In this document: piece by piece, positions 6,887-59,555 of the stretch
Numbering within the stretch: the first letter of the stretch is position 1
Layout of the letters: every line of letters starts with the position of its first letter
Origin: Patescibacteria group bacterium
Lineage (GTDB): Bacteria; Patescibacteriota; Minisyncoccia; Phycocordibacterales; UBA9973
Direction of reading: 5' to 3'
Assembly (NCBI GenBank): GCA_030916965.1
Contig: JAUPVQ010000012.1
Coordinates: 776-64,775 of the forward strand
DNA: 64,000 nucleotides
Position numbers and translations under genes: made by a program
The notes under the pieces: generated by a model
Seen by the model: only the letters and a program-made list of their open reading frames with translations
Database searches by the model: none
Told to the model about the DNA's origin: nothing

Positions 6887-6945
6887 CCTATACACTATAA
6901 TACACCATAGACAGATTTTTATTTCAAAATATAAATTATTAAGTC

Positions 6946-7880: not shown

Positions 7881-7954
7881 TGCGCCCTCATGGATTCGAA
7901 CCATGGACCCCAGAGGTATAAGCTCTGTGCTCTAACCAACTGAGCTAAGGGCGC
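7881..7954 (-). tRNA. tRNA-Ile with anticodon UAU (reads AUA)
   Basis: Hand-folded cloverleaf: acceptor GCGCCCT/AGGGCGC, D-arm GCTC-AGTTGGTTA-GAGC, anticodon stem CAGAG/CTCTG with loop CTTATAC (U33, A37), T-arm CATGG-TTCGAAT-CCATG, discriminator A. No encoded CCA. Confidence 0.8.
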
Positions 7955-10443: not shown

Positions 10444-10833
10444 GGGGATGACGGGCTTTCGACAGGAAGTGCCATTATGTATATGCGTGTCGAGTACTCA
10501 GGAACCTCGCAAAACTTCTTGAAAAAGACTAAGTGCAAACAAAGTCGCTTCAGTAAAATCTCCTTACGCTTTTGCGTCTGGAAATTTTGCTCTATCCTTC
10601 GCCTAATAGGTCAAGGTAGTGTCCACTCTATCGACATCCGATAAATAGTTTGGGCATAATCAATCGGATTACGAATTCTATACCGCTTGAATAGAATTTC
10701 GACAATCAAAAGCTCGGTATTGTAGTGTTTTGAATGTTCTCTAGCTACATTATTTAAAACCAATGAACACTCTACACACGTAGAATTATATATAATCATT
10801 TTTTGCACGGCGGTTCAACTCCGCCCATCTCCA
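10444..10833 (+). ncRNA. ssrA: tmRNA (ssrA)
   Basis: 5' end GGGGATGACGGGCTTTCGACAGG and 3' end GGCGGTTCAACTCCGCCCATCTCCA form a tRNA-Ala-like acceptor with G3:U70 and a T-arm. An internal tag ORF, gca aac aaa gtc ... tcc ttc gcc taa tag, gives ANKVASVKSPYAFASGNFALSFA with a tandem stop. Lies immediately downstream of smpB. Confidence 0.85.
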
Positions 10834-10842
10834 CAGACAATA

Positions 10843-26189: not shown

Positions 26190-26192
26190 TAA

Positions 26193-26226
26193 AAATACCA
26201 CCCATTGGGTGGTATTTTTATATTAA
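26193..26226. terminator. Intrinsic terminator after rplT
   Basis: AAAAATACCACCCAttGGGTGGTATTTTTAT. Confidence 0.6.
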
Positions 26227-26520
26227 TTAATCAAATTTTCCATCTAATTCAGTTATTTGGAAAGGTTTGTCCCATAAATCCTTATCAATATTTACAAAAC
26301 TTTCAAACATCTCTTTTGCTTCATCAAAATTTTTAGCATAAATTTCCATTCCCATACCATTTGGACCATTCTGTTCAGTAGCATCGAGATTATATAATTT
26401 AATTTCTTTACTACCTTTTCCAAATTCTTCTTTGTATAAAGCTATTTTAGCACTATTAGCTTTAGCTTTATTTTCTGCTTCGACTCCCCATTTTTTTTGT
26501 TCATTATTTAATCCTTCCAT
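26227..26520 (-). CDS. Hypothetical small cytoplasmic protein (97 aa)
   Basis: Clean ORF with no signal peptide or TM segment. Expressed from the poly-G spacer promoter at 26552-26581. Confidence 0.45.
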   Translation of the reverse strand: MEGLNNEQKKWGVEAENKAKANSAKIALYKEEFGKGSKEIKLYNLDATEQNGPNGMGMEIYAKNFDEAKEMFESFVNIDKDLWDKPFQITELDGKFD

Positions 26521-26551
26521 AAATTTTATTGGGTTATTTACTAATAGCCTA

Positions 26552-26581
26552 ATAATACCCCCCCCTGTGGCATCAAGTCAA
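26552..26581 (-). promoter_or_regulatory. Sigma70-like promoter with a G8 homopolymer inside the -35/-10 spacer
   Basis: Minus strand reads cccTTGACTtgatgccacaGGGGGGGGTATTATtagg: -35 TTGACT, 18-nt spacer ending in G8 (plus-strand C8 at 26558-26565), -10 TATTAT, about 30 nt upstream of the start of 26227..26520. Confidence 0.55.
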
Positions 26582-26680
26582 GGGTTTAATTTTACTTGCA
26601 TAATATGGATGTATATAGTATATTATCTACATAAACAAGAAAAAGACCCCTGATATGTCTCGGCATATCTGGGGGCTTTT

Positions 26681-27163
26681 TCATTTTATCTTTAGTTTTT
26701 CAACAAATTGATCAAGGATTACAATTGGAACATTTGTACGTTTTAATAAGAGCGATAGATACTTGCGATTCGGCGATACAATTTCAATGTGAATATTTTT
26801 CTCTTTCAAAAACTCAACAATACAGTGGTAATCACCATCTCCAGAAACAAGGACTACGCTTTCTAGCTTATTTTCATAAAAATCTTTTGCAATAGTTAGT
26901 ATCAATTCTCCGTCTACATTTCCTTTAGTTTTGCCCTCTTTGCTAGTAATTGTAGGCTTGAAAGAAATATCATACCCAATATTCTGTAAGTAATTATAAT
27001 ATTCGAAGTTATCGGGTAAAAGTCCCATAAAAAGTATGGCTCGATTTACGCCAAATTTATCACGGAGCCACGACCGAAAAGATTTATAATCAAGCTCCCA
27101 GCCACTTTGCTTGACGCCGAATTTTAAATTTGAAGAGTCTATGTATGCAGTAGAATTTTTCAT
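26681..27163 (-). CDS. NYN-domain (LabA-like) predicted ribonuclease
   Basis: 160 aa. AILFMGL...VVLVSGDGDY...IEIVS acidic-residue pattern of NYN/PIN-like nucleases. Confidence 0.7.
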   Translation of the reverse strand: MKNSTAYIDSSNLKFGVKQSGWELDYKSFRSWLRDKFGVNRAILFMGLLPDNFEYYNYLQNIGYDISFKPTITSKEGKTKGNVDGELILTIAKDFYENKLESVVLVSGDGDYHCIVEFLKEKNIHIEIVSPNRKYLSLLLKRTNVPIVILDQFVEKLKIK

Positions 27164-27184
27164 TGCATTTTAAAAAACTAATAA

Positions 27185-28951: not shown

Positions 28952-29238
28952 ATAAATATAGTAGCAAATACAAAGACTTTTGCCTATGAAAAAGAAAAAT
29001 CCTCAATCATAAAGATGGAGAATTCGTCTTTTAGGGCTATCTCGGAAATATTACCATAGCGTTACGCTAAGTGGGTGTATTGCAACTCTCACCACAGTGA
29101 AAATTGACCGATACTCCCTTAAAATATATGTTCTAGGTAACACGCCGCCAATAACCCTACATAAATTATACCTGAATGTAAAACCAAAGCAAGCGTTTTA
29201 ATGATTAACCACACCTTTGACAGCTTTACAAGTCTAAT

Positions 29239-42752: not shown

Positions 42753-43097
42753 TTATTTCTTCTTTGTATCTGTTGCACCCTTTGCAGCCTTGGCAGCAGT
42801 AATCTCGGCCTCTTTCTTCTTTTGCTCTAATTCTTTTTGCATTTTACCTCCATGGCGTACGAACTTACGAGTTAGAGAAAATTCTCCTAAACGGTGTCCT
42901 ACCATGTCTTCTGTAACCAATACTTCAACGTGCACCTTACCATTATGTACTCCGAACATGAATCCTACCATTTCTGGAGAAATTTGACATGCACGAGACC
43001 AGGTCTTTATCATACCTGTTTCGATTGGTTTCTTGCCAGCGATTTTTTTCAAAAGTCGCTCGTCTACGTATGGTCCTTTTTTAAGTGATCTTGTCAT
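42753..43097 (-). CDS. rpsS: Ribosomal protein uS19 (with a lysine-rich C-terminal extension)
   Basis: [19 protein letters not shown]... Confidence 0.9.
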
Positions 43098-43190
43098 ATA
43101 TAAAATAAAGCTCTACAGAGCTCGTAAGGTGTATATTATACCAAAGCGTTACAATAGTCAAGTTAATATATTATTGCTATAATAAAATCT

Positions 43191-43826
43191 ATGAATATAA
43201 TCAAATCCAAAGAATTGGCCAAAAAACTCTTGGAAATTAAGGCCGTAAAATTAAATGTTGAAAATCCGTTTACTTGGACATCTGGTACGATATCCCCTAT
43301 TTATTGTGATAATCGTATGGTACTTTCTTATCCAGAAATTCGAACTTTTGTAAAAAATGCTCTGGCTGAAATTATTCAAGACAAATTTCCAAACACAGAA
43401 GTCGTAGCCGGAGTAGCAACTGCAGGAATTGCACATGCAGCACTAGTATCGGATGTATTAAATTTACCGAATTGTTATGTACGTCCCGAGCCAAAAAAAC
43501 ATGGGATGAAAAATCAGATCGAAGGCAATCTACCAAAAGGTAGCAAGGTTGTACTAGTAGAAGATTTGATTGCAACTGGTAAAAGTAGCTTCCAATCAAT
43601 CCAGGCCGTTCGCGAAGCAGGCTCCGAGGTGATTGGGCTTGTGGCATTATTTACGTATGGATTTCCAGATGCAAAAGAATCATTTGATAAAGAAAATATT
43701 CCAACATATACTATTTCAAATTTCGAAACTTTGTGCACAGTTGCAGTAGAAGAAAATTTGCTCGATAAAAATAATCTAGAGAAAGTTATAGAATTCGCCA
43801 AAAACCGCGACGGGTGGAGAAAATAA
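43191..43826 (+). CDS. pyrE: Orotate phosphoribosyltransferase
   Basis: 211 aa. PRPP-binding loop VVLVEDLIATGKS. Confidence 0.85.
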   Translation: MNIIKSKELAKKLLEIKAVKLNVENPFTWTSGTISPIYCDNRMVLSYPEIRTFVKNALAEIIQDKFPNTEVVAGVATAGIAHAALVSDVLNLPNCYVRPEPKKHGMKNQIEGNLPKGSKVVLVEDLIATGKSSFQSIQAVREAGSEVIGLVALFTYGFPDAKESFDKENIPTYTISNFETLCTVAVEENLLDKNNLEKVIEFAKNRDGWRK

Positions 43827-43829
43827 ATA

Positions 43830-44558
43830 CTACTTGGCTATAAGCATTGCATCTATTATTTGTTGCAACACAAGTTGAGCTGCTTCAGCCCTATCTTTTT
43901 GTTGTGTGATACCTCGCCCTACAACAATAGCAGTAGCTCCATTTAAAATTGCATCTTTTGGTGTCATTGTGCGATTTTGATCATTGGTTACTGTCCAATC
44001 AGGTTGGATCCCTGGAGTTATTTTTATCAAATCGTTAAATTGTGGGTCCATGCATAGCATCAATAATTCATTTGGGGAACACACAATACCATCCATTTTT
44101 GAATTGAGTGCATCCTCTGCAAATTGATAAACTTTTTCATTGACTGGTGATCCAAATATATGCAAGCAATCTTCTTCAGTATGAGAAGTCAGTACGGTAA
44201 CACCCAAAATACAAGTATCCCCTTTGTTTTCAACGGCTCTTTCCAATGCTCTTGCTCCAGCTGAGCAATGCACTGTCATCATATCTACATTTTTTTGAAC
44301 CAATTTGGCCGTTGCATGACCTACTGTATTAGGGATATCGTGGAATTTACCATCAAAAAAAACTTTTGCTTTATATTTTTTAACAAGATTTATCATTGTG
44401 TCTATCCCATAAGCAGTACTTACTTCGAGCCCTATTTTATACCATCCACAGAATAAATATGTTTCTTTAATTAAATCTTCGATTTCGCCTAGACTAGCAA
44501 CATTATCGATAGCAATAATTAATTTATCTTTTGGTGTTTTAAATAGATTGTCTTTCAT
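43830..44558 (-). CDS. pyrF: Orotidine-5'-phosphate decarboxylase
   Basis: 242 aa. DGKFHDIPNTV (Lys-Asp-Lys-Asp array) and IVVGRGI. Confidence 0.85.
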   Translation of the reverse strand: MKDNLFKTPKDKLIIAIDNVASLGEIEDLIKETYLFCGWYKIGLEVSTAYGIDTMINLVKKYKAKVFFDGKFHDIPNTVGHATAKLVQKNVDMMTVHCSAGARALERAVENKGDTCILGVTVLTSHTEEDCLHIFGSPVNEKVYQFAEDALNSKMDGIVCSPNELLMLCMDPQFNDLIKITPGIQPDWTVTNDQNRTMTPKDAILNGATAIVVGRGITQQKDRAEAAQLVLQQIIDAMLIAK

Positions 44559-44559
44559 G

Positions 44560-45000
44560 TTAATTTAATATTATTTTTGGTAAGAATATTATCAAGCCTA
44601 TCACACTTGCCACAACAACAGAAATAAGGACTGCTCCTGCCGCGACATCCTTTGTTGCTTTCGCGTATGGGTGATATTCAGGACTAGTAAGATCTATATC
44701 TATCTCCATAGCAGTATTAAATGCCTCTGAAGCGAGCACGAAGCCCATAGCCAGCACTAGAACTGACCATTCAGCATGTGATATATCAAATTTGAAACCA
44801 AGAACTATAGCAACTATAGCTGCCACCATGTGCACCCAAGCATTGTGCTGTGTACGAAGCATAATCCCAATTCCTCGAAAAGCATGCTTGAAGCTACGCG
44901 CCCGAGCAATAATTGAGAAGTTCTTTTTAGTCAAAAATTTATCCATATACAGCATTATAACAAAAAATACCCATAACGGGTATTTTTTGTTATTCACCAA
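44560..45000 (-). CDS. dgkA: Prokaryotic diacylglycerol / undecaprenol kinase (DgkA family)
   Basis: SFKHAFRGI...EAFNTAMEIDIDL...AKDVAAGAVL parallels E. coli DgkA. The start may be at the internal MDKFL. Confidence 0.75.
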   Translation of the reverse strand: MVNNKKYPLWVFFVIMLYMDKFLTKKNFSIIARARSFKHAFRGIGIMLRTQHNAWVHMVAAIVAIVLGFKFDISHAEWSVLVLAMGFVLASEAFNTAMEIDIDLTSPEYHPYAKATKDVAAGAVLISVVVASVIGLIIFLPKIILN

Positions 45001-45010
45001 ACTTAATAAA

Positions 45011-45661
45011 CTAAAGAGGCCTTTGACTTGTTGTAGGATCTAATAACTTACCCATATTAGGAAGAGGAATATCACCTTCTGCTGAGACACTATTTACACC
45101 CGCTTCGTCGGGATTAATAAATTTTGTTATTAATAAAGCTTTAGTTTCTTTATTTATAGTTCCGCTCGCTGGAAGTTTGTATTTCTTTTGGAATTTAGTA
45201 ATTGCTGATTTCGTCATAGATCCATAATTTCCATCTACAGCACTAATTAATCCTTCATTTTTTAAAACAAGTTGTATTTTTTTAACATTTGTATTATTTT
45301 TATTCCCTAAAACAGGTGTTTTTGCATCAAAAACTTGTGAAGCACCAGTTGTAGGAAGTATAGCCCCTCCTCCATAAATACCATCTTCTTGCGGATTTTT
45401 ATTAGCAGAATATCCACGTGTATCACACCAGATCTTTGTACCATCACCTTTCATTTCTCCCCCAACTGTATATGTACTACCATCTGAATATGTAATAGTT
45501 ACCTGGCAAAGATTCCTACCTGAATCAGGATCATGACCTAAATATTTAGTAGTTCGTCCAACCTCATACTTTACTTCTTTTGCAAAAATGAACCCAGTAA
45601 ATGAAACAAACATAAGTATAAAAACAAAACTCCCTAAACCAATTTTTAAAAATTTCTTCAT
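45011..45661 (-). CDS. Secreted protein with a C-terminal peptidoglycan-binding (PG_binding_1-like) domain
   Basis: Signal peptide/anchor MKKFLKIGLGSFVFILMFVSFTGFIFA. C-terminal VKKIQLVLKNEGLISAVDGNYGSMTKSAITKFQKKYKLPASGTINKETKALL. Confidence 0.6.
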   Translation of the reverse strand: MKKFLKIGLGSFVFILMFVSFTGFIFAKEVKYEVGRTTKYLGHDPDSGRNLCQVTITYSDGSTYTVGGEMKGDGTKIWCDTRGYSANKNPQEDGIYGGGAILPTTGASQVFDAKTPVLGNKNNTNVKKIQLVLKNEGLISAVDGNYGSMTKSAITKFQKKYKLPASGTINKETKALLITKFINPDEAGVNSVSAEGDIPLPNMGKLLDPTTSQRPL

Positions 45662-45724
45662 AATATGAATAGAATTAAATTGTGTGTTGTTATAATAAAA
45701 TTACACACAACTTAAACTAATAAC

Positions 45725-45755
45725 ATTGTACCCCCCCCCCTCGGCCTCCTGTCAA
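45725..45755 (-). promoter_or_regulatory. Sigma70-like promoter with a G10 homopolymer inside the -35/-10 spacer
   Basis: Minus strand reads atatTTGACAggaggccgaGGGGGGGGGGTACAATgt: -35 TTGACA, 19-nt spacer ending in G10 (plus-strand C10 at 45731-45740), -10 TACAAT. Lies upstream of 45011..45661. Confidence 0.55.
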
Positions 45756-45794
45756 TATATTGTGGGGATAAATAATTTACTAAATACCCTATAT

Positions 45795-45826
45795 ATAAAT
45801 AATACACATTTAAGCATATGCATAAA
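45795..45826. repeat. Palindromic repeat element, copy A
   Basis: ACACATTTaaGCATATGCatAAATGTGT. About 27/32 identical to copy B. Terminator-like hairpin just 3' of gene 45849..46457. Confidence 0.6.
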
Positions 45827-45848
45827 TGTGTTTCATTTTATTTTTTTA

Positions 45849-46457
45849 CTACTTTTTTCTAATTCTTAGATACAACAATGATACTGCTACTGCGCCTAGG
45901 ACGTCTAGGAGCATATCCTTTTGTGCGTCCCAGATGTCGCCTTGAGAGCCTAGGAAGGCTGCTCCACTCTCCCCTCCATACAATTCTGCATACCACCATT
46001 CTGTCCATTCGTAGAACACAGCCACAAATGCTATAAAAAATATAGAATGAGTTATCGCGAGAAACCTTTTGGCCACCAACTTCCTTTCCACCATGTATTC
46101 AATAATCGGTAATGCATAGAATCCTACTGTAAAGTGCCCAATACGATCATACATATTACGCTCAAATCCGAAAAAGTTATTAAAGAAATCAAATGGTACA
46201 CGCTCAAATGTATAGTGCCCTCCAATAGTATGCCAAAATGGCAATATGAACATTAGTATATATGAAGTATTAGAGAATCGTACACCTCGGTAATATAGGA
46301 TTACTATAAACAAAACGAGCAACATAATAGGAATATTCTCGGCATACCAAACGCTCCGTGAATAAGGATTAATCCCTGCAACAATTGCCTCTATTACATA
46401 AAGGCCCAATAAAATATGTGGTAAATATTTTTTCATATTATAAATTACTAAATACAA
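45849..46457 (-). CDS. Polytopic membrane protein (202 aa), possibly YjdF/DUF2238-like
   Basis: 5-6 TM helices. Motifs HTIGGHYTFERVPF and ERNMYDRIGHF. The family assignment is from memory only. Confidence 0.45.
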   Translation of the reverse strand: MYLVIYNMKKYLPHILLGLYVIEAIVAGINPYSRSVWYAENIPIMLLVLFIVILYYRGVRFSNTSYILMFILPFWHTIGGHYTFERVPFDFFNNFFGFERNMYDRIGHFTVGFYALPIIEYMVERKLVAKRFLAITHSIFFIAFVAVFYEWTEWWYAELYGGESGAAFLGSQGDIWDAQKDMLLDVLGAVAVSLLYLRIRKK

Positions 46458-46776
46458 ATAATAAAATAATCATAGGCACAATAGTTAGAACTAATTCAAC
46501 AATAAAAAATATCCGGGCTATTCTATATGCTGAAGGACTTTTGGTGAAAATAATTACAAGTGCCGGAACAATGAATAATAAGATCGCAAAACTACCAGAA
46601 CTCCTGTTAAAAATAATTGGCAAGAGGAACAAAAAAGCATATATAACAAGCTGTATATAAGCAATAACTAAGATTACTTTAGATTTATGAAATTCTTTTA
46701 CAACAGCACTAACTGGTATTGGAACTGGTGGTGGAGTTATGATAGGTGGTATTTCCATAGATATTTTATTCCCCAA
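46438..46776 (-). CDS. Small 2-3 TM membrane protein (112 aa), paralogue of 47969..48289
   Basis: Pro-rich N-terminus. Shared block VVKEFHKSKVILVIAYIQLVIY versus VVAKEFKKNINAIILACVQIIVII. Confidence 0.5.
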   Translation of the reverse strand: MGNKISMEIPPIITPPPVPIPVSAVVKEFHKSKVILVIAYIQLVIYAFLFLLPIIFNRSSGSFAILLFIVPALVIIFTKSPSAYRIARIFFIVELVLTIVPMIILLFVFSNL

Positions 46777-47218
46777 CTACTTTGTGGCGACTTTGAGTGA
46801 GGTATATACCATATGTACATACGGCAATAAGGGCGAGCATTACTATGTAGAACTGGATTGTAGTGTGATGATTGATGAAATATACACTAACTTGAAGCAG
46901 TAGTTGCATAGCCAAGATTATACTGACCACGAAATATGGTACAAGTGCTACTGCATAACGCTCTTGTCTGTGAGAAAGTGATAGATTCAATACTAATGCA
47001 ATAACTAGGAAGAATATTATTACAACAGCATGCACAATGATCACACCTAAGTTGTCGAAATAGTCGAGCGGTGGCAATGCAATCAAACGGCCTGTATCGT
47101 AGAGTACCCTCTCGGCTAAGGCTAGAAGTGATAGGCCAAGGAGGGTCACAATAAATCCTCCAGTATTTGTAAACTTTGTTTTGAAAACATTTTCATTTTG
47201 TGTTGTTACAAGTGCCAT
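46766..47218 (-). CDS. 4-TM membrane protein (150 aa), same architecture as 48292..48768
   Basis: Overlapping or coupled genes. Hydrophobic profile. Confidence 0.5.
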   Translation of the reverse strand: MALVTTQNENVFKTKFTNTGGFIVTLLGLSLLALAERVLYDTGRLIALPPLDYFDNLGVIIVHAVVIIFFLVIALVLNLSLSHRQERYAVALVPYFVVSIILAMQLLLQVSVYFINHHTTIQFYIVMLALIAVCTYGIYLTQSRHKVVGE

Positions 47219-47222
47219 ATAA

Positions 47223-47867
47223 TTATGATTTCATATATTTTTGAATAAAAAGAATCGATCCTGTAAGTACAATAATTATAAGTATCAATACAACATACAC
47301 ACCATAAGCTGCATTAGCATTCAAAATATAGTTGCTAGTATCCCAAAGTAGTCGTACGAGCAAAAATCCGCTAACCAGGAAGTATGGCTGGGACATAATA
47401 AGGAACTTTTTCTTATGATCTCGGAAAGATTCATGCAAGATAAAAGCCACTACTATAAACGGGACAATCAGCATCACATCAAAAATCAATTTAGCATTTA
47501 TACTATTTGTAAATATAGCACTGTCATCTATTACCTTATTGAGGAGTATAAATATAGCAGCACAAAGCACTGTCGCAAGACCAATACTATATGGTGAATT
47601 GTACTCAACTGAGTGATTCTGGTTAATAGTATGACTACTTGCCACTGTAGACTTAGCAACATTTATAGATACTGTTTGTTGTGGAATATTTATTTGAGCT
47701 GTACCTGCTGGCACCGGCATCCCCTTCAAGAGCTTCATATGTGAATATGCTTCCTCTACTTCATTACTCTGCCATCCAGCCTTGGCCAATACATCCCGAA
47801 CAGCAGACTCGGTAAAACCCTGAGCCTCGACTGTCTTTATATAGTTCACCAACTGCTCATTTATCAT
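47223..47867 (-). CDS. Membrane protein (214 aa) with an N-terminal soluble helical domain
   Basis: N-terminal ~60 aa soluble (LVNYIKTVEAQGFTESAVRDVLAKAGWQSNEVEEAY), then 4 TM helices. Confidence 0.5.
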   Translation of the reverse strand: MINEQLVNYIKTVEAQGFTESAVRDVLAKAGWQSNEVEEAYSHMKLLKGMPVPAGTAQINIPQQTVSINVAKSTVASSHTINQNHSVEYNSPYSIGLATVLCAAIFILLNKVIDDSAIFTNSINAKLIFDVMLIVPFIVVAFILHESFRDHKKKFLIMSQPYFLVSGFLLVRLLWDTSNYILNANAAYGVYVVLILIIIVLTGSILFIQKYMKS

Positions 47868-47935
47868 GTATTTAAATTATACTACTTCTCAAAATTTACA
47901 CAATCAAAAACCAATTTTCCCCTTAATAAAAATGA

Positions 47936-47965
47936 TACACATTCTAGCATATGCTGAAATGTGTA
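47936..47965. repeat. Palindromic repeat element, copy B
   Basis: ACACATTCTAGCATATGCTGAAATGTGT. Near-perfect palindrome followed by a U-run on the minus strand. Confidence 0.6.
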
Positions 47966-47968
47966 TCA

Positions 47969-48289
47969 CTAATTTAATTTAGATAAAACAATACTCAAAA
48001 AATAGAAGAAAAAAAATATATACTCAACAGTCATTAAACTTTTTCCTATCTTATAGATAGATTCATCTTTCTTATTTGAAAACAAAATTAGAAGCGCGGG
48101 AATAATTGCAATTATCCACCAAAATGGGACATAGTAGAGTAAGGATTCTGGGTGAACTCGCACACGAAAAATATTAAATATAATAACAATAATTTGAACA
48201 CAGGCAAGAATAATAGCGTTTATATTCTTTTTGAATTCTTTCGCAACTACCGGCACATTTGATTTATTGTTAATTGTTTGTTGTTCCAT
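47969..48289 (-). CDS. Small membrane protein (106 aa), paralogue of 46438..46776
   Basis: Shared KEF-containing block. 2-3 TM helices. Confidence 0.5.
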   Translation of the reverse strand: MEQQTINNKSNVPVVAKEFKKNINAIILACVQIIVIIFNIFRVRVHPESLLYYVPFWWIIAIIPALLILFSNKKDESIYKIGKSLMTVEYIFFFFYFLSIVLSKLN

Positions 48290-48291
48290 AC

Positions 48292-48768
48292 TTAAGACAT
48301 TGTTTGTTGATCTTGTAAAAAGCTTATCTCGCCTTCATATTTTGTTCTACCTTGCAATCGCTTTGTTACCGATACAAAACTCCCAATTACTACAATATGA
48401 AAGAGAGGGACAATTATAGTTCCACCATATTGCCAGCATAAAAATCCTAGTCCGGCTTCAGTTGCAACACCAGGCACGAACCAACCAACAAAAACTGAAA
48501 GAAACAATACTATTGATACTACCGTATACAAAATATATTTTTTAAAATTTAAAAACATTCCCAAAAATACAATCAAAATAGAGTTTGCAAAAAAATAAAT
48601 ATCCATAGGGCTATTTCTTAAATTATAAAACTCAGAAAAATCCAAATACATTGGGAAATTACCTATCCTTAATGTAAGATGTACAATTGTTAACCAAACA
48701 GACAATATTCCAACAATTATACAAAATATTGCCCATCGATTTCGTTTTTTATCTAAAATAATTTGCAT
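48292..48768 (-). CDS. 4-TM membrane protein (158 aa)
   Basis: Hydrophobic profile. 3 nt from the next gene. Confidence 0.5.
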   Translation of the reverse strand: MQIILDKKRNRWAIFCIIVGILSVWLTIVHLTLRIGNFPMYLDFSEFYNLRNSPMDIYFFANSILIVFLGMFLNFKKYILYTVVSIVLFLSVFVGWFVPGVATEAGLGFLCWQYGGTIIVPLFHIVVIGSFVSVTKRLQGRTKYEGEISFLQDQQTMS

Positions 48769-48813
48769 ACATGTATTGTATCATCTATAAAACAAACTAC
48801 AATCAAAATTTAT

Positions 48814-49548
48814 TTATTTCATGCCTCTTACTAGCTCGATTTCTGATTTTAGCTTTGTTTCGACATCCTTTGAGCTTTTTATAAAGTCTACAACGGTAAA
48901 GCCGTGGTTGGATGTTAGTTCGTCGCTATGATCAGGGGTTGAATTAAATAATGCCGATTTATTACCTGCTGAAAAATTATCCTCTTTTATTAAATCCGGA
49001 TTATTATAATTGCTAATTCCAAAAATATTCTCATTGACAACAAAAAGCTTTCCGTTCGCGCAAATACTCTTACTCTCAGCTTTAAACATAGTCTCGCTAG
49101 TTGGGGGTAGAGTATTAGTTTTGTTTTTTGTTTTTTGATACATTATGATTGCATTTTTGTCACCAAAAGATGCTAGCCTTGATTTATAGTAAATATGCTC
49201 CGAGGAATCTACCTCCCACTTATTTTGAGGTGCTTCTTTGTAAGATTGAAGCAAGTTATGTTTCTTGGCTTCAGCAAATAGGACATCCGAAAGACTATCA
49301 CAGGCCTCTTTGTGCTTATTTATTTCAATTGTTTGCTCTTGTGTAAGCTTTATATTTTGGGTTGCACATTCTACCTTTTTTTGTTGTGCCTCTGAATAAC
49401 CAAAAGATGCTAGAAATAATGCCGATGCCACACCGAACCTCTTAAGTGAAGTGCGTAAAGATTCAAAAGTAGTCGGATCAGTATTTTCCTTGACCTCATT
49501 TTTGTTATTTAGAACATTGTCTTGTGATGCAAAATTAAATTTTTCCAT
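48814..49548 (-). CDS. Hypothetical secreted or membrane-anchored protein (244 aa)
   Basis: Hydrophobic signal-anchor LKRFGVASALFLASFGYSEA after a 35-aa N-terminal stretch. Cys-containing soluble domain. Confidence 0.45.
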   Translation of the reverse strand: MEKFNFASQDNVLNNKNEVKENTDPTTFESLRTSLKRFGVASALFLASFGYSEAQQKKVECATQNIKLTQEQTIEINKHKEACDSLSDVLFAEAKKHNLLQSYKEAPQNKWEVDSSEHIYYKSRLASFGDKNAIIMYQKTKNKTNTLPPTSETMFKAESKSICANGKLFVVNENIFGISNYNNPDLIKEDNFSAGNKSALFNSTPDHSDELTSNHGFTVVDFIKSSKDVETKLKSEIELVRGMK

Positions 49549-49587
49549 GGGTTAATTATAACATGGCCTACATGCAATACAATAAAA

Positions 49588-49622
49588 AATACCCTTGATT
49601 GTTCAGGGGTATTTTTTTAAAA
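49588..49622 (-). terminator. Strong intrinsic terminator directly after rplB
   Basis: AAAAATACCCCTGAACAATCAAGGGTATTTTTT (minus-strand sense). Confidence 0.6.
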
Positions 49623-50474
49623 CTATTTTGATTTTCTTGATTTTCCAACTTTTCTTCGAGATACAACAAACATGTTTGAGTATTTCTTTGGTGTTCGAGT
49701 CTTTTGGCCTTTACCTGTTGGCTTACCATACACACTCTTGGCACGGCGTAGTCCTCGTCCTTGTGCACCTTCACCTCCTCCGTATGGGTGATCCACTGGG
49801 TTCATGGCACTACCTCGAACTGTTGGACGGATACCCTTCCATCGGCTCTTGCCGGCTTTACCAAAGTTTTGAAGAATGTATTCTGAATTTCCAACTTCAC
49901 CGATTGTTGCCCAACATTTCTCGCTAACTTTGCGAACTTCTGTTGAAGGCATTTTCAAGTTTGTATATCCATTGTCATTTGCCACAACTTGCGCAAATGT
50001 ACCAGCACTGCGAACCATCTTTGCACCATTACCTGGCTTGACCTCTACGTTGTATACAAATGTACCAACTGGGATCACTGATAGTGGCAAACGGTTAAGT
50101 GTAGTAAGTGGAGCCTTTTCGGATACCATAAACTTGTCTCCTACTTTGATAGATTTTGGTAGTACTGTGTAGCGCTTCTCACCATCGGCATATACTGCCA
50201 ATCCTATGAATGCATTACGGTTCGGATCATATTCAACAGTTGTGATCTTTGCAGGGATATCATGCTTGTTGTACATGAAGTCTACATCTCGGTATAGGCG
50301 CTTGTTACCACCACCTTTGTGGCGAGTAGTAATACGGCCTTGGTTGTTGCGTCCTACAGAGCGCTTGAATCCATGTGTCAGAGACTTCTCTGGAGTACTT
50401 GTAGTCAAGACACCTCGGTATGTAACTGTAGTCTCGTGACGCTTTGATGGAGTTGTTGGTCTATATGTTTTCAT
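49623..50474 (-). CDS. rplB: Ribosomal protein uL2
   Basis: 283 aa. GRNNQGRITTRHKGGG...PVDHPYGGGEG. Confidence 0.92.
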   Translation of the reverse strand: MKTYRPTTPSKRHETTVTYRGVLTTSTPEKSLTHGFKRSVGRNNQGRITTRHKGGGNKRLYRDVDFMYNKHDIPAKITTVEYDPNRNAFIGLAVYADGEKRYTVLPKSIKVGDKFMVSEKAPLTTLNRLPLSVIPVGTFVYNVEVKPGNGAKMVRSAGTFAQVVANDNGYTNLKMPSTEVRKVSEKCWATIGEVGNSEYILQNFGKAGKSRWKGIRPTVRGSAMNPVDHPYGGGEGAQGRGLRRAKSVYGKPTGKGQKTRTPKKYSNMFVVSRRKVGKSRKSK

Positions 50475-53813: not shown

Positions 53814-55280
53814 TTATTCAAAAATATCTTGCTTGTTTTCATCCACTTCTGGCTTAATCTCAAGCTTTGTTTCTGGCATTTGCACTATTGGTGTTTGCAC
53901 TACTGGCACAGCCAACTCTGGGGTTGTGTTGGTTTTTACCTCAGGGACCGCTTTTATTTCTTCTGTTTTTTCATCTTTTGCATCCATTACTTCCTCTACC
54001 TCTTTTACAACCTCGGCTACACTTTCACCCTTTTTGCCTTGAAGCAAATGTGATATTACTTGTAATTTGCGCAATACTTTGTGACCCCATAGATAATGAG
54101 TAAGGTAGAGCAATACCAGTAGTAGAAGTAACAACAACAACATAATACTTGAATTATTTGTAAACCATCGCGCAAGGGCTGTAGGTGGGCGAACAGAAGT
54201 TTGTATATCTGTACTGTTACCTGCCATATCATATGCACGGATAATTACACGAGAATTTGCTACAGCAGAAACGGGCACTTGGTACGGACTCTCGGAACGC
54301 ACAAAAATTGGAGAAGAAGTCTCCCCTTGAGTTTTGTCGATTACACCAATCTCATAATGATCTATACCCGATAGACTGTCTGTGCTGAAGAATGAAACTA
54401 ATGCTTTATCAATATTGTCAGTTTTTATATAATCAACTTTTGGCTTAAATTTAGCAGGGGCTGTTGTATCTATTCGAAATAGATAATGTGTAGTTGTGCC
54501 CCATGCTCCACCCTCATTGAGTGATTTGATATGGAAATACCACAAGCCATCGGTTAGATCTTGGTACGACTTAGAAGTTTCGTTTAGTATATTTTTATTA
54601 TCTGGAATAGTATTTGGCTTGTTGTCTAGGATATAACTAAAGCCGACAATTTTGGGATCTTTGTTCCAGGCTACAGTTGGACTATTGTTGTTATACCAAT
54701 GATCTTGGAATTGATGGGTGTCGGAATATATTGTTAATCCCCCAGGAGATTTTGGCAGTATTGTATACAACCCACGACTACTTGTGAGGATTGCTTGTGA
54801 TCCAAGCCCATCATTTGCCAACACGTTTGAACTATCCAATACTCGAATCTCTGTTGTCCCTGTATTCTTTGCTTGAAACGTTATCGTAATGATCAATGCT
54901 GAATCAGAGACAATCCCCCCTGGAACTGTTCCCACAAAGCTTGCTGTACCGTTTGTGTTGTCATACTTTGGTGGCTGAACCCAGATACCGATAATTGATT
55001 TACCAGTAGAGGGTTTGATAATACTCAACTTATTGGGGTCAAATTTTAAATTTAACTCTATGGCATTCATGCTCTGCCCTTTTGTATTTAAAAGTATTGG
55101 TACTTCAAAAATTGACCCTTCTATAAAAGTAGCAGAACTTGGATTAACCGATATCTCAGCTCGAGCTATCAGCGTCGATGCATCTACATTTACCACCTGT
55201 TCTGCATATATAAAAGATGCATTACCAAGTAATAATATTAAACCTAATATTAATGAATGTACTTTTTTATATTTATACAT
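53814..55280 (-). CDS. Membrane-anchored surface protein with an N-terminal cohesin-like domain (paralogue 1 of 3)
   Basis: Signal peptide. ~140-aa domain NAIELNLKFDPNKLSIIK...ASFVGTVPGGI...ITITFQAKNTGTTEIRV with cohesin-like beta-sandwich periodicity. Ig-like middle domain. Poly-Leu TM helix and an acidic cytoplasmic tail. Confidence 0.55.
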   Translation of the reverse strand: MYKYKKVHSLILGLILLLGNASFIYAEQVVNVDASTLIARAEISVNPSSATFIEGSIFEVPILLNTKGQSMNAIELNLKFDPNKLSIIKPSTGKSIIGIWVQPPKYDNTNGTASFVGTVPGGIVSDSALIITITFQAKNTGTTEIRVLDSSNVLANDGLGSQAILTSSRGLYTILPKSPGGLTIYSDTHQFQDHWYNNNSPTVAWNKDPKIVGFSYILDNKPNTIPDNKNILNETSKSYQDLTDGLWYFHIKSLNEGGAWGTTTHYLFRIDTTAPAKFKPKVDYIKTDNIDKALVSFFSTDSLSGIDHYEIGVIDKTQGETSSPIFVRSESPYQVPVSAVANSRVIIRAYDMAGNSTDIQTSVRPPTALARWFTNNSSIMLLLLLLLLVLLYLTHYLWGHKVLRKLQVISHLLQGKKGESVAEVVKEVEEVMDAKDEKTEEIKAVPEVKTNTTPELAVPVVQTPIVQMPETKLEIKPEVDENKQDIFE

Positions 55281-55285
55281 ATTAA

Positions 55286-56338
55286 TTATTTTTCCTTATT
55301 ATAAATGCAGGGGCCAAATAATTTACATTTAGGATGATTACGGCAATACATTACTCTGTACCAGCCATACAATATTATTATCATTACAAAGAGTAGAATG
55401 ATTGGTATCATAAATAGGAATATATTTGTAGTTTTTGTTATTACCAATTTAGGCTCCTCTTGTACAGAAATTTGAAGCGGGATTGTTTCTATACTCTCAA
55501 CTCCTTTGGCATTACGAGCTCGGGCTACTATTGTATACATTCCTTTTCTTGCTCTGCTTTCTGAGACATATGTATAGTTTCCTCTTTCATCTGCTTTGAT
55601 AGTTGAAGTTTCATGTAAAAAATTACTACTATCCAACAATTGTGCATCTAGATTGAAGATAACATCATGCAATGGTAATGATGTACCTTTTATCACAATA
55701 AAATCATTCTCACGTACATTGTTCGAATAATCTGTAAAGATAGGTACCGGCACTATATCTATTTCTATCTCTACTTTTTCTATTGGTATAGTTGGTGTTG
55801 GTGTTGGTGTTATTTCTGGAGTTTTGATCTTTACTGATTCCGAGATATTGAAGTTGGAACCTCTTGTATTATTTAGTATTGGTGTACCTGCCCCGTCATG
55901 AGCTAGGACTGAAGCATTCTCAAATTTGATACTTGCCTTACCATTTGATTTGGCTTTAAAAAACAAAGTTAGTATGATTCCATTACTTCCTTGATACCCC
56001 GACAGTATTACTCCGTCTAGATTAAGTATTCCATTTGCGTTCGAATACGATGGCTCGACTGGCCAAACATTTACAATTGAGTCGGATTTTGAAATAGAAC
56101 TCAGAGTAAGCAAATCTTTCGAAAAAGTTACAGTACCTGATATTGCATTGGCAATCTTGTCGCTACTAGATAAAATTATCCGTGCTTTTATTGTGTCCCC
56201 TACTTGTACGCTACTAGATGCTGGAGAAATACTTAGATCTGCAGCATGAACAGTATAACTTGAGAAAATAAATAAAATTACAACCAAAAAGCAAAATACA
56301 GAATACTTAGAAAAATTTTGTTCTCTTACTATGTGCAT
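55286..56338 (-). CDS. Membrane-anchored surface protein with an N-terminal cohesin-like domain (paralogue 2)
   Basis: Signal peptide. TVTFSKDLLTLSSI...GILNLDGVILSG...ILTLFFKAKSNGKASIKF. Thr/Pro linker TPEITPTPTPT. C-terminal TM helix. Confidence 0.55.
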   Translation of the reverse strand: MHIVREQNFSKYSVFCFLVVILFIFSSYTVHAADLSISPASSSVQVGDTIKARIILSSSDKIANAISGTVTFSKDLLTLSSISKSDSIVNVWPVEPSYSNANGILNLDGVILSGYQGSNGIILTLFFKAKSNGKASIKFENASVLAHDGAGTPILNNTRGSNFNISESVKIKTPEITPTPTPTIPIEKVEIEIDIVPVPIFTDYSNNVRENDFIVIKGTSLPLHDVIFNLDAQLLDSSNFLHETSTIKADERGNYTYVSESRARKGMYTIVARARNAKGVESIETIPLQISVQEEPKLVITKTTNIFLFMIPIILLFVMIIILYGWYRVMYCRNHPKCKLFGPCIYNKEK

Positions 56339-56346
56339 ACTTAATA

Positions 56347-57201
56347 TTATACCCTATATTTACGCAAATATCGACGGTATATGTACAAAACACAAAACAT
56401 AAGCCCCACAATTAATAGAACAATTACTAATATCAGCCACTTTGATAAGAGGATTGATTCTCTTGCGTTCCCATCTGCATCAACAGCACGAACAATTACT
56501 CTGTAAAATGGGGTTTGGTATTTTAATAAATGAGGTGATTCGGATTTTATGCAATTTTGTCTACTGAATTCACATACTTCATAATAATCAATGCCTGTCC
56601 CTTTGTCCTGCGCACTATACACCAAATACCATTTATTATCATATATGTATATGTTCCTTGTCCTTTCTGTTGTGAATTTTTCTGGTTTTGTTTTATCATT
56701 TGCAATAATCTGTTCCTCAACTTGTGTTGTATTTTGAGTAATATTTAAACTACTATTATTTACGGTAACAGTATCTTTTGTGCCTTCCCCATCATTCAAG
56801 AATAGATTTATATTTTCAAGAGTTATGCCAGTCTTTCCTTCATTAACACCTCTGAAAATTACAGAAAATACATCCCCCTGAGCTATCGTTATGCCTCCAG
56901 GCACAATCCCAGAGAAATGAATCCTACCTTCATTTACAAAATTTGGCTTCTCAACCCAGAAGCTTATAAAAGAATTCCCAATGTTAATTTTCTCAACTTT
57001 TAGGAAATTTTTGTCATATACTAAATCCCCCTCAACTGTATTGATTGAATTTAATTTCGTATCTAATTGTACATTTATAGTAGAAAGTTCTCCGGTCTTT
57101 ATGTTACTCTTTTCTACTGTTAAATTGACAGACGAAGCACTCGCAACATCGCTTACAAATAGTATACATAATATTATAATTGTTAATTTAATTTTTTTCA
57201 T
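56347..57201 (-). CDS. Membrane-anchored surface protein with an N-terminal cohesin-like domain (paralogue 3)
   Basis: Signal peptide MKKIKLTIIILCILFVSDVASA. DLVYDKNFLKVEKI...RIHFSGIVPGGI...VFSVIFRGVNEGKTGITL. C-terminal TM helix. Confidence 0.55.
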   Translation of the reverse strand: MKKIKLTIIILCILFVSDVASASSVNLTVEKSNIKTGELSTINVQLDTKLNSINTVEGDLVYDKNFLKVEKINIGNSFISFWVEKPNFVNEGRIHFSGIVPGGITIAQGDVFSVIFRGVNEGKTGITLENINLFLNDGEGTKDTVTVNNSSLNITQNTTQVEEQIIANDKTKPEKFTTERTRNIYIYDNKWYLVYSAQDKGTGIDYYEVCEFSRQNCIKSESPHLLKYQTPFYRVIVRAVDADGNARESILLSKWLILVIVLLIVGLMFCVLYIYRRYLRKYRV

Positions 57202-57470
57202 ATATTTATTTTCTGACCATAAAAATACTCTTTTAGCATTCGCTTTAATAAACGACTTCCTTGGCTTGTTTTAAGATATTTTTCTCTTCTCTTTGCATCT
57301 TGTTCATTTAAATATGCTTCATAATGAATAATACTCCATGGTCGTTTGCTTTTAGTAGAAAGATTTAGACCTTTATTATGCGCTTGTAATCGTGTTTTTA
57401 AGTCAGCTGTATAGCCTTTATATAACTCGCCATTTACTTTGCTTTGTAATATATATGTGTAATAAAACAT
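57198..57470 (-). CDS. Small GIY-YIG nuclease-family protein (90 aa)
   Basis: FYYTYILQSKVNGELYKGYTADLKTRLQAHNKG...RPW. Confidence 0.8.
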   Translation of the reverse strand: MFYYTYILQSKVNGELYKGYTADLKTRLQAHNKGLNLSTKSKRPWSIIHYEAYLNEQDAKRREKYLKTSQGSRLLKRMLKEYFYGQKINI

Positions 57471-57483
57471 AAATTTTTATTTA

Positions 57484-57572
57484 TCCTGTCCACAGGGTAG
57501 TGAAAGTTGGCATAGCGCTTTGCGCGCTCCGATTAGTATCGGAGCAATGCCAACTTCTACTACCCTGTCCAA
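57484..57572. repeat. ~90-bp compound palindromic structured element
   Basis: Arms CCACAGGGTAGTGAAAGTTGGCAT / ATGCCAACTTCTACTACCCTGTCC (about 21/24 bp complementary) enclose two short hairpins (AGCGCtttGCGCGCT and CCGATtagtATCGG). Confidence 0.55.
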
Positions 57573-58921
57573 TAATACGCCATTATACTAAAGTCGACTA
57601 AGTTAATTTTGCTATCACCATTTAGCTTAAGCTTCTCTAAAGCAAGTGTTTGAGTATTCAACACTTTCTTATACCAAAATGCAGCGATAGAAAAGTCTAC
57701 TAAATTCACTTTGCAATCATTATTTAAGTCACCTTTTTGTGGACACTTTTTATCAACTGGGGCTATGTTTTCAGATCCAACAGAAAAATTATACCCATTA
57801 CTATACCCACTAATTTCTCCTCCAGATGCAACTTTTGATTTTGCATTATGTCCCCCAACCTCCAGCACTGACGTATCCATTGTATGAAGATATACTCCAT
57901 TTTTATCAGAATTTACTTTTCTAAATATTTCTTCGTTTGAGTGAACAGCAATTGTCACTTCACTTTCGGGAACTGCCTGTCCAAAAAATGTAATATTATC
58001 GCCCTTTTTGACTGTGCTTTTATCACCGGTTAGTGTCGGTGACAGGAATATTCCTCCTACATTTATTGTTACACCTTCAGTGATTGTTATGGGAAAAGAT
58101 TGAAGGACTGATTTGATGCCATTTTTATCTGAAGAGTATACGCTGAAAACATATACCCCAGCGCTTGCACCATTGATTTGAATATTAAAATTTGCATCAG
58201 ATCCCGAGACTGTACTTGCGACGGTCTGACCATCCTTCAAAAGTGTTACAGGGCTCAGTGGGTATGCCTTACCGAAAATAATTACCTTTGTGTTCGGTGT
58301 TCCTCCGCCACCCCCTCCTCCACCGCCGCCTCCTCCGCCTCCACCACCACCGCCTCCTCCTCCAGATGCTGCGGGTGTTGAACTAACAATCGCAGATTCA
58401 TTCAATAGAAATCCTGCGGCATATGAGCGAATTTTGAAATAGTATGTTGTGCCATTTGTAAGACTTGTTTGTATAGAGGTTAATACATTACCAACATTAC
58501 TGTAAGTATATGTGCCTCCAGATGATGTGCTAATACCCACTTCATAACTTGTAACATTTGCAAATATACCAGTTGATGCTGTCCAATTGAGAGTCACTTG
58601 AGTATCACCAGCCGTTGCAGATACAACAGGCGAACTTGCTGTAGGGAAATAAAGGAAACCAGCATTTTGAGCGAAGTTGGAACTAGTACTTTGGCCTTGT
58701 GTGATCTGACTTGTACTTGATAAATACTGAAAGCTCGATGAAGATGCCTGTCCTCCTGATATAACTGCAGTTGATGGATTCTCGAGATTAAAGCTTGTAC
58801 TTGAAAATGCAGATGCAAAAGAAAAAAACACCAATCCAAAAAATAGAATCAGGGAAGTTTTAAAAACAAAAATTCCGTTAATCTTATTTTTTTTCTGGTG
58901 TTTTTTCTTGAACGTTTTCAT
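57560..58921 (-). CDS. Secreted multidomain protein with an Fn3-like domain, a Gly22 linker, Ig-like domains and a C-terminal dockerin-like domain
   Basis: Signal peptide. Fn3-like QVTLNWTAS...TSYEVGIS...TTYYFKIRSYA. 22 consecutive Gly. C-terminal duplicated Ca-loop segments GDLNNDCKVNLVDFSIAAFW and LNGDSKINLVDFSIMAYYW. Confidence 0.65.
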   Translation of the reverse strand: MKTFKKKHQKKNKINGIFVFKTSLILFFGLVFFSFASAFSSTSFNLENPSTAVISGGQASSSSFQYLSSTSQITQGQSTSSNFAQNAGFLYFPTASSPVVSATAGDTQVTLNWTASTGIFANVTSYEVGISTSSGGTYTYSNVGNVLTSIQTSLTNGTTYYFKIRSYAAGFLLNESAIVSSTPAASGGGGGGGGGGGGGGGGGGGGGTPNTKVIIFGKAYPLSPVTLLKDGQTVASTVSGSDANFNIQINGASAGVYVFSVYSSDKNGIKSVLQSFPITITEGVTINVGGIFLSPTLTGDKSTVKKGDNITFFGQAVPESEVTIAVHSNEEIFRKVNSDKNGVYLHTMDTSVLEVGGHNAKSKVASGGEISGYSNGYNFSVGSENIAPVDKKCPQKGDLNNDCKVNLVDFSIAAFWYKKVLNTQTLALEKLKLNGDSKINLVDFSIMAYYWTG

Positions 58922-59005
58922 CTATATCTAAATTATACCCCGTAGTGAGATTTCTCACAAATTCTACTACCGGGTATATAGATGAGTACCCGCTCTCCAA
59001 TGTAA

Positions 59006-59443
59006 TTACTGAGCCTTCGCAGGAGTTGTTGTTGTTTTTGCTGCTGGTGCTGCTGCTGGTGGAGTAACTGATTTTGCATCACCAATATTTAGTGGTGCAA
59101 CATCTAGAATCTTGTTCATTCCTACACTGTATAGTATTGCTTTTTTTGCTTGTGCGTAGATTAGAACTTTGTCACCCTTTACAGCATTTGCGAAGAAGAC
59201 TTGATCCTTCAATGCCTCAGGATCTGACACTGTTGCTACAGTTGGTGTCTCCTCTGTTGGTAGTACTACCAATTTACCAACCTTCACTACAAGCGCTTCT
59301 ACTTCTTGTTGCGCTGCTATATTTGGATCCTTTTTAAGATCGCGCACTTGCTTATAAAAATAACCTGCAGCCAAGATTGCAATTATCGCAATTAATGGCA
59401 CTACAACTTGAACAAACTTCTTTTTTACAATATCATTTTCCAT
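59006..59443 (-). CDS. Hypothetical N-terminally membrane-anchored protein (145 aa) with an Ala/Pro/Thr-rich C-terminal tail
   Basis: TM helix VVPLIAIIAILAAGYFY, then a small domain. C-terminus PPAAAPAAKTTTTPAKAQ. Confidence 0.45.
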   Translation of the reverse strand: MENDIVKKKFVQVVVPLIAIIAILAAGYFYKQVRDLKKDPNIAAQQEVEALVVKVGKLVVLPTEETPTVATVSDPEALKDQVFFANAVKGDKVLIYAQAKKAILYSVGMNKILDVAPLNIGDAKSVTPPAAAPAAKTTTTPAKAQ

Positions 59444-59555
59444 ATATAAAAATATAATAAACTAATAATAAATAGACACTATTAAACACACATCTATACG
59501 TACTATTGTATAACAAACATATTTACTATGCAAGAGAATGAGGAAAATATATTTT

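Follow-up and report, generated by a model that had tools for sequence, protein, structure and literature searches.

The poly-G contingency promoter is a design already known from pathogens. In Neisseria meningitidis, a tract of 11G lies between the -35 element and the -10 element in the promoter of porA, and alleles with 10G and 9G lead to approximately 2-fold and 13-fold less surface expression, respectively (PMC3639595). In Treponema pallidum, the promoter of tp0126 carries a poly-G tract between -35 and -10, with an optimum at 17-nt spacing; the tracts of tprL comprise 7-11 G and vary within isolates, and transcription of tprE/G/J occurs only with 8 or fewer G's (PMC7864442). Length heterogeneity was found there inside clonal isolates, and the effect of tract length was derived from reporter assays together with fragment-length analysis (PMC7864442).

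Here, we describe a candidate promoter of this kind, termed locus 1, in a wastewater Patescibacterium of the Nomurabacteria/Paceibacteria group. It was found in a 64-kb stretch of DNA, which as a whole is called the window throughout. The likeness to porA is threefold: a homopolymer of about 9-11 G in the spacer of a sigma70-type promoter, a cargo predicted to act at the cell surface, and tract lengths that differ among isolates. In contrast to porA, the host is an environmental bacterium and not a pathogen, and the locus is known from sequence alone. Moreover, the tract abuts the -10 element, the gene belongs to an ORFan cassette absent from close relatives, and all alleles seen lie above the optimal spacing, while those of porA are found at the optimum and below. 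With T. pallidum, our case shares a hard-to-culture, small-genome organism and poly-G tracts of 7-11 in promoters of (here putative) envelope-protein genes; it differs in phylum and lifestyle, and in that its alleles are known only between samples or strains. Repeats in the promoter spacer also act as switches in hifA/B of Haemophilus influenzae, (TA)n, in the vlp genes of Mycoplasma hyorhinis, poly-A, and in fetA and opc of N. meningitidis, poly-C. The common ground with these systems is a simple repeat in or overlapping the promoter, where slipped-strand mispairing shifts the spacing and switches a surface protein, as we propose for locus 1; they differ from it in the kind of repeat and in the host, and some of them also in that an activator takes part.

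Patescibacteria, also known as Candidate Phyla Radiation (CPR), have tiny genomes with few recognisable regulators, and a life attached to host cells is assumed for many of them. We found no report of poly-G contingency promoters in this group. A full-text literature search did not find 'candidate phyla radiation' and 'phase-variable' in combination, the leading literature on phase variation and homopolymeric tracts makes no mention of Patescibacteria, and the sole full-text co-mention of 'Patescibacteria' and 'phase variation' concerns archaeal methylation.

Sequence Data and Search Definitions

The set of relatives consists of 80 genome loci fetched from GTDB relatives, 1.25 Mb in total. Run statistics were computed on the window plus these 80 related loci, which amounts to 2.63 million positions on both strands. 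A G run was counted as lying in promoter context if TAnnnT follows right after the run and a -35 hexamer, matching in at least 4 of 6 positions with TG, precedes it with a spacer of 16-19 nt. The generic promoter scanner, in turn, allows spacers of 16-18 nt only. Strain assemblies were gathered via exact-protein look-ups of conserved neighbours, because the regulated proteins matched only themselves and a comparison of orthologues was hence impossible.

The Promoter at Locus 1

On the minus strand, positions 45755-45725 read TTGACA-ggaggccga-GGGGGGGGGG-TACAAT, with a spacer of 19 nt. The -35 hexamer TTGACA (45750..45755, minus strand) also occurs in other promoters of the window, e.g., upstream of 39153, 39732 and 53676. 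It is followed by the non-repeat part of the spacer, ggaggccga (45741..45749, minus strand), which is identical in 8 out of 8 assemblies examined, and by the variable element, a G10 homopolymer (45731..45740, minus strand; C10 on the plus strand). The latter abuts the -10 hexamer TACAAT (45725..45730, minus strand), which is also the -10 of other promoter-like sites in the window. The preliminary description of the locus had given the same hexamers, the same G10 and the same spacer length, and a direct sequence check reproduced this reading exactly. The ATG of a 216-aa open reading frame lies 64 nt 3' of the -10.

Extraction of all intergenic regions of the window yielded further promoters, among them TTGACA-17-TAGTAT, TTGACA-16-TATGAT, TTGACA-16-TAGTAT and TTGACT-17-TAATAT. 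The promoters elsewhere in the window follow the pattern of TTGACA or TTGACT, 16-18 nt and TAnnAT. Judging from this pattern, the hexamers of locus 1 match the sigma70-type promoter class used by the host genome; the generic scanner missed locus 1 because its spacer is 19 nt long.

In the window and the 80 relatives, pairs of the form TTGACn-N-TAnnnT number 24 at a spacer of 16 nt and 22 at 17 nt, over a background of approximately 8, and fall to 11 at 18 nt and 10 at 19 nt, near background. This peak indicates that the RNA polymerase of the lineage prefers 16-17 nt. The earlier view that 19 nt exceeds the preferred length is hence retained, while the optimum of 17-18 nt named along with it has to be shifted to 16-17 nt. 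With this preference, the on state of locus 1 would be G7-G8; neither a G7 nor a G8 allele was seen at this locus in the 8 assemblies.

We also considered the G10 as part of an intrinsic-terminator stem. This was rejected, as there is no adjacent complementary C run and TACAAT rather than a series of T's follows. A G8 in one of the relatives (L077) does form an intrinsic terminator with a stem of G/C runs, unlike the G10 of locus 1.

Rarity and Placement of Long G Runs

The GC content of the window is 37.9%, and 34.9% near locus 1, values that replace the estimate of about 36% given before. Apart from the G10 and a G8 at 26558-26565, no G/C run in the 64 kb exceeds 6 nt, a length reached by four runs. 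A first-order Markov model of the plus strand expects 0.34 runs of at least 8 C and 0.018 runs of at least 10 C in the window; the preliminary description had called the 10-nt run extreme.

Placement is as unusual as length. Among G runs of 3-6 nt, 30 out of 12,420 (0.24%) are found in promoter context, close to the 0.18% obtained for all positions. For runs of at least 7 nt, the count is 5 out of 12 (binomial P = 6e-11), and for runs of at least 8 nt it is 4 out of 5 (P = 2e-10). The position of the run within the -35/-10 spacer, to which the preliminary description had drawn attention, is therefore beyond chance, with 5 of 12 against 0.24%. Since runs of 3-6 nt show no enrichment, a broad preference for G ahead of the -10 does not account for it. 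On these statistics, the placement of long G runs appears to reflect selection for a promoter design.

Five poly-G promoters were found altogether, each with its -35 at 17-19 nt: G10 and G8 in the window, G8 and G9 in a second genome (L034), and G7 in a third (L071). Those of L034 read TTGACA-N10-G8-TACTAT and CTGACT-N9-G9-TATTAT; that of L071, TTGTTA-N10-G7-TATACT, lies upstream of a gene for a 423-aa signal-peptide protein. When aligned, the five agree in nothing but the tract and the TA within the -10, with the exception of a partial 5'-UTR similarity between the G8 of the window and the G9 of L034. A single mobile promoter element was rejected on these grounds. As the five promoters did not arise by copying of a common element, the design recurs independently. 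It does so sporadically, with 3 cases in the 1.25 Mb of GTDB relatives. In the JGI relatives (80 loci obtained via a ribosomal protein S3 metagenome scan, 714 kb), there is no G run of at least 8 nt and no poly-G promoter, and scanning metagenomes with p214, a protein of the island, yielded no match.

The Cassette at Locus 1

The promoter is part of a cassette of approximately 900 bp (44967..45865, minus strand) between a DUF2238 gene and dgkA, composed of a hairpin, the G10 promoter, the 5' UTR, the gene of a peptidoglycan-binding (PG-binding) protein, and a terminator. Homology breaks at ~45866 and ~44966; measured from the left boundary, the tract is about 125 nt into the cassette, and there are no direct repeats at the cassette boundaries.

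The hairpin (45804..45831, minus strand; fold -11.8 kcal/mol, z = -3.9) is located 3' of the DUF2238 gene and directly upstream of the promoter. By position and fold, it appears to end the DUF2238 gene and to insulate the locus 1 promoter from read-through. Transcription would then enter a 5' UTR with a predicted 13-bp stem-loop (UUAAGUUGUGUGU...ACACACAAUUUAA; 45675..45715, minus strand; RNA fold -14.9 kcal/mol, z = -2.8), which may be an RNA stability element or an operator. Rfam gave no match in 45600-45900, i.e., for promoter and UTR.

The 216-aa protein (45011..45661, minus strand) shows, at its N-terminus, a hydrophobic stretch of the signal or anchor type, along with a PG_binding_1 domain (Pfam PF01471, residues 123-177, E = 2.4e-12). 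This is in good agreement with the secreted peptidoglycan-binding product that had been proposed for the regulated gene. The protein matched only itself among 5.8 billion proteins. NCBIfam returned sub-threshold matches only, to the PG-binding region; PADLOC returned nothing for the regulated proteins of either locus; and tblastn gave no match in the 80 related loci, neither for the PG-binding protein nor for the 97-aa protein of the second locus described below. An AlphaFold model of the PG-binding protein alone reached a pLDDT of 48 and is unusable.

An intrinsic terminator (AAAAAATACCC-GTTAT-GGGTATTTTTT; 44962..44988, minus strand; fold -16.7 kcal/mol, z = -4.5) closes the cassette. With this terminator behind the PG-binding gene and the hairpin before the promoter, the unit is monocistronic. 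The native extended -10 of dgkA, TGTTATAAT, comes after the cassette terminator and is kept in strains without the cassette, too. Two wastewater strains (L200, L202) encode an identical dgkA protein; there, dgkA follows DUF2238 after 26 nt and the cassette is absent. It is also absent from L008 and L010. That strains with an identical dgkA lack the cassette marks the ~900-bp unit as a recent insertion. With strain-specific genes in units bracketed by terminators, a predicted PG-binding protein in the window and the 423-aa signal-peptide protein in L071, the cargo is typical of contingency loci.

The surroundings of the cassette are variable as well. In the window, the S10 operon, otherwise universal, is split between L2 and S19 by an island of approximately 6.5 kb (43098-49622), flanked by rpsS (42753-43097) and rplB (49623-50474). 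It contains small membrane proteins, DUF2238, the PG cassette, dgkA, pyrF and pyrE. While dgkA is present at the island in 64 of the 80 relatives, the other content differs even between strains of 98-99% identity, and pyrE/pyrF of L008 and L010 are non-orthologous replacements. Similar terminator-like hairpins (ACACATTT..GCATATGC..AAATGTGT) occur on the minus strand at 45804-45831 and ~47925-47955, behind different small membrane-protein genes of the island, which suggests paralogous or duplicated units. In L034, the 3' end of rplB is duplicated over 160 nt (4883-5042 and 6107-6265, 93% identical); the duplication brackets a cassette with a poly-G promoter and adjoins an IS200/RayT-like Y1 transposase gene (6444-7172). 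This arrangement hints at a possible entry route of cassettes into the slot between rplB and rpsS.

A Sister Promoter at Locus 2

A second promoter of like design had been announced for 26552-26581. Direct reading confirmed it as TTGACT-tgatgccaca-G8-TATTAT (26552..26581, minus strand) with an 18-nt spacer, composed of TTGACT at 26581-26576, G8 at 26565-26558 and TATTAT at 26557-26552. It drives, as predicted from its position, a 97-aa ORFan, p97 (26227..26520, minus strand), which matched only itself among 1.84 billion representatives and has no Pfam, NCBIfam or PADLOC match. A bidirectional terminator (26191-26219) closes the unit. The gene of an NYN-domain nuclease (26681..27163, minus strand; PF01936 E = 8e-16; PADLOC NYN model E = 1.5e-10) travels with the sister promoter and the cassette.

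Between rplT and the RNase J gene there is a slot, corresponding to 26196-27191 of the window, which is either empty or holds NYN, the poly-G promoter and alternative ORFans, as seen in a comparison with five related loci (L185, L187-L189, L208). In L187-L189, the NYN gene, the promoter and p97 are jointly absent, and in some strains the RNase J gene directly follows rplT. In L185, L208 and L210, open reading frames of 47 aa and 155 aa replace p97 behind the same promoter. Homology between the cassette types stops approximately 20 nt past the -10. The slot content may be a defence-type or toxin-like module.

Conservation of the promoter and of about 15 nt of the transcript, with different ORFans behind it in different strains, is reminiscent of the Pc promoter of integrons. 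The likeness is an analogy only: no integrase gene lies beside the loci, and an unsystematic look identified neither attI nor attC. More generally, neither an integrase nor a recombinase gene is found beside either window locus, the neighbours being DUF2238 and dgkA at locus 1 and the NYN nuclease and rplT at locus 2. An integron-like cassette system was rejected on the missing integrase at both loci and the missing repeats at the boundaries of locus 1. Homologous recombination within the conserved flanks can account for the gene swap at locus 2. As the strain comparisons show, both promoters head self-contained, terminator-flanked, strain-specific cassettes.

Tract-Length Variation

At locus 1, the G10 of the window recurs in five assemblies (SRR24011140, 142, 143, 146 and 150). 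A G9 allele was found in SRR24011144, where the tract is the sole gap in 4051 nt aligned with 0 mismatches, and in SRR22000184, a 99.4% strain, where it is the sole indel in 4848 nt beside 28 substitutions. At locus 2, the window and seven assemblies carry G8, SRR22000184 carries G9 (sole indel in 3342 nt, with 19 substitutions), ERR977410 carries G10, and GCA_001458635.1 carries G11 with an altered -10. The carriers of the locus 2 alleles are at least 98% identical.

The comparison of SRR22000184 with the window is most telling. Across 8.2 kb, there are just two indels, one in each poly-G tract, with G10 in the window against G9 at locus 1 and G8 against G9 at locus 2; the chance of two random indels both hitting the 18 nt of tract is approximately 5e-6. 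The compared DNA has many A/T runs of 7-8 nt, none of which shows an indel, which argues against a systematic sequencing error at homopolymers. The preliminary description had named a fixed tract length and relatives free of homopolymers as evidence against its proposal, and had suggested a comparison of related genomes. The outcome is the opposite, with G9 against G10 in otherwise identical 4051 nt at locus 1, and G8-G11 at locus 2. Between samples and strains, the tracts are thus hypervariable relative to their flanks. Relative to the window, the length shifts are -1 at locus 1 and +1, +2 and +3 at locus 2; shifts in both directions would be compatible with reversible switching.

Some observations call for a cautious reading. 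The tracts of L034 are invariant (G8 in 4 and G9 in 2 assemblies), and the lone G9 within the SRR240111xx series could be the consensus of low coverage or PCR stutter. The start of an SRR24011146 contig 4 nt before the run was considered as within-sample heterogeneity and rejected, since the break is unlike the k-mer merge point of a G9/G10 bubble. A further G7 (L034, 5351-5357) belongs to the coding sequence behind the G8 promoter of L034; it is invariant in four assemblies and possibly represents a second, translational switch point.

Proposed Mechanism and Alternative Explanations

We consider it probable that locus 1 is a slipped-strand contingency promoter of the porA/Treponema type, which is mostly in a low or off state. 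A canonical sigma70-type promoter, TTGACA/TACAAT, would drive a recently acquired monocistronic gene whose peptidoglycan-binding product is secreted or anchored. The G10 run fills the 3' half of the spacer, and changes by one base would alter the -35/-10 spacing and hence promoter strength. Tract length presumably changes transcription; this prediction derives from the spacer preference of the lineage, and the published behaviour of porA and tp0126 agrees with it. The expected output is nearly off for G10 (19 nt), weak for G9 (18 nt) and fully on for G8-G7 (17-16 nt). If switching is as frequent and reversible as we infer, a population would carry a heritable, reversible mix of expression states without any regulator. 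Promoter type, tract polymorphism, the sister locus and the PG-binding cargo support the contingency promoter of the preliminary description as a well-founded candidate.

The alleles seen so far set a limit to this reading. No predicted on allele is present in 8-11 assemblies: the spacers measure 18 or 19 nt at locus 1 and range from 18 to 20 nt at locus 2. As all alleles give spacers of 18-20 nt, the sampled populations appear to hold the genes mostly in a low or off state. Either the genes are kept mostly silent, or the spacer arithmetic may be inexact for G-tract spacers. An A-like geometry of poly(dG), which would make 18-19 nt equal to 17, was rejected as the main explanation, as porA and tp0126 fit plain counting to 17. 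It is partly because all observed alleles exceed the optimal spacing that we do not go beyond a probable assignment. Polymorphism alone is no proof of a regulatory role either, as any long homopolymer is mutable.

The tract could indeed be mutable and yet neutral or static, with about equal output from G8 to G11, or play the part of a fixed spacer or of an element resembling an extended -10, with a length that drifts passively. Such drift would be compatible with alleles that are all off-optimum in front of genes that stay intact, with the invariant L034 tracts, and with ordinary promoters that carry GG or GGGG before the -10 (GGGGTATGAT upstream of 39732, GGGGTATAAT upstream of 58921). An extended G preference, however, should not produce the bimodal distribution found, with runs of 3-6 nt at 0.24% against a background of 0.18% and runs of at least 7 nt at 5 out of 12. 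Tract placement is moreover the sole feature common to five independent promoters, spacer length is a strong determinant of sigma70-type promoters, as in porA and tp0126, and the persistence of a neutral G10 would be unexpected in a genome of 38% GC. On balance, we regard a neutral tract as unlikely, albeit worth keeping in mind.

A role of the poly-G as cassette junction, recombination site or protein-binding site, with incidental or secondary hexamers, seems improbable to us, as it predicts neither a -35 at 17-19 nt nor an immediate 3' TAnnnT in five cases. Both window loci do lie inside strain-specific insertions, but the tract of locus 1 is placed about 125 nt inside the left boundary and not on it, and direct repeats are absent from the boundaries of this cassette. 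The homology between the cassette types of locus 2 ends approximately 20 nt downstream of the -10, and one L034 tract follows the 160-nt rplB 3'-end duplication and adjoins the Y1 (IS200/RayT-like) transposase gene; beside the two window loci, however, integrase and recombinase genes are absent. A sequencing or assembly artefact, e.g., a two-colour poly-G artefact or homopolymer miscalls, is very hard to reconcile with more than 10 independent assemblies, obtained in at least 4 projects, in which the uniquely flanked tract lies in the interior of contigs. Homopolymers are error-prone, contig SRR24011146_43620 begins 4 nt ahead of the run, and the G11 allele of the older GCA_001458635.1, which also lacks the 'TA' of the -10, may be a miscall. 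Nevertheless, five samples at locus 1 and seven at locus 2 agree in tract length, and the strain comparison over more than 8 kb shows no indel at other homopolymers.

If the contingency promoters are real switches, a strategy of host-restricted pathogens reaches into an environmental, uncultivated phylum. The switches would then point to accessory genes likely relevant to the interaction with host or phage, namely a secreted PG-binding protein and ORFans beside an NYN nuclease, and the ratio of tract lengths would provide a simple metagenomic read-out of state switching in populations. If the tracts are passive polymorphisms, the finding shrinks to an ordinary mutational hotspot. What the present loci seem to add to the known design is that the cassettes headed by the putative switches carry ORFans, can be swapped and occupy variable slots of the chromosome. 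A more far-reaching reading, to which we give little credit at present, is that, in this patescibacterial group, self-contained ORFan cassettes are gained, lost and swapped in fixed chromosomal slots in or next to ribosomal-protein clusters, rplB/rpsS and rplT/RNase J, with poly-G promoters as their stochastic switches. If it holds true, an episymbiont of tiny genome would follow a 'contingency cassette' strategy that needs no regulator, and phase variation would, to our knowledge, be documented for the first time in the Candidate Phyla Radiation.

Other Features of the Window

Apart from the two loci, an intergenic region of 287 nt (28952-29238, minus strand) carries a promoter, GGTATAAT, with a strongly structured RNA as well as a hairpin behind it. 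Its part 28955-29165 (211 nt) folds with -64.4 kcal/mol (z = -5.1) and lies upstream of a 125-aa DUF2238-like gene. Rfam yields no match for the RNA of 28952-29238 even at E<=1, and we consider it a candidate leader or small RNA of a new type. The only Rfam matches of the window at gathering threshold are a tmRNA gene (10444-10836, plus strand, 131.7 bits) and a tRNA gene (7881-7954, minus strand).

A 907-aa protein encoded at 30407-33130 (minus strand) shows signatures of VirD4/TraG/TrwB-type coupling ATPases, as in type IV secretion or DNA-uptake-like systems. The region 53814-63938 (minus strand) harbours a cluster of large proteins with cohesin, fn3/Big and G8 domains, including one of 1460 aa, which are probably secreted or exposed at the surface. 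A Gly-rich GGNGGN repeat is located at 58301-58364.
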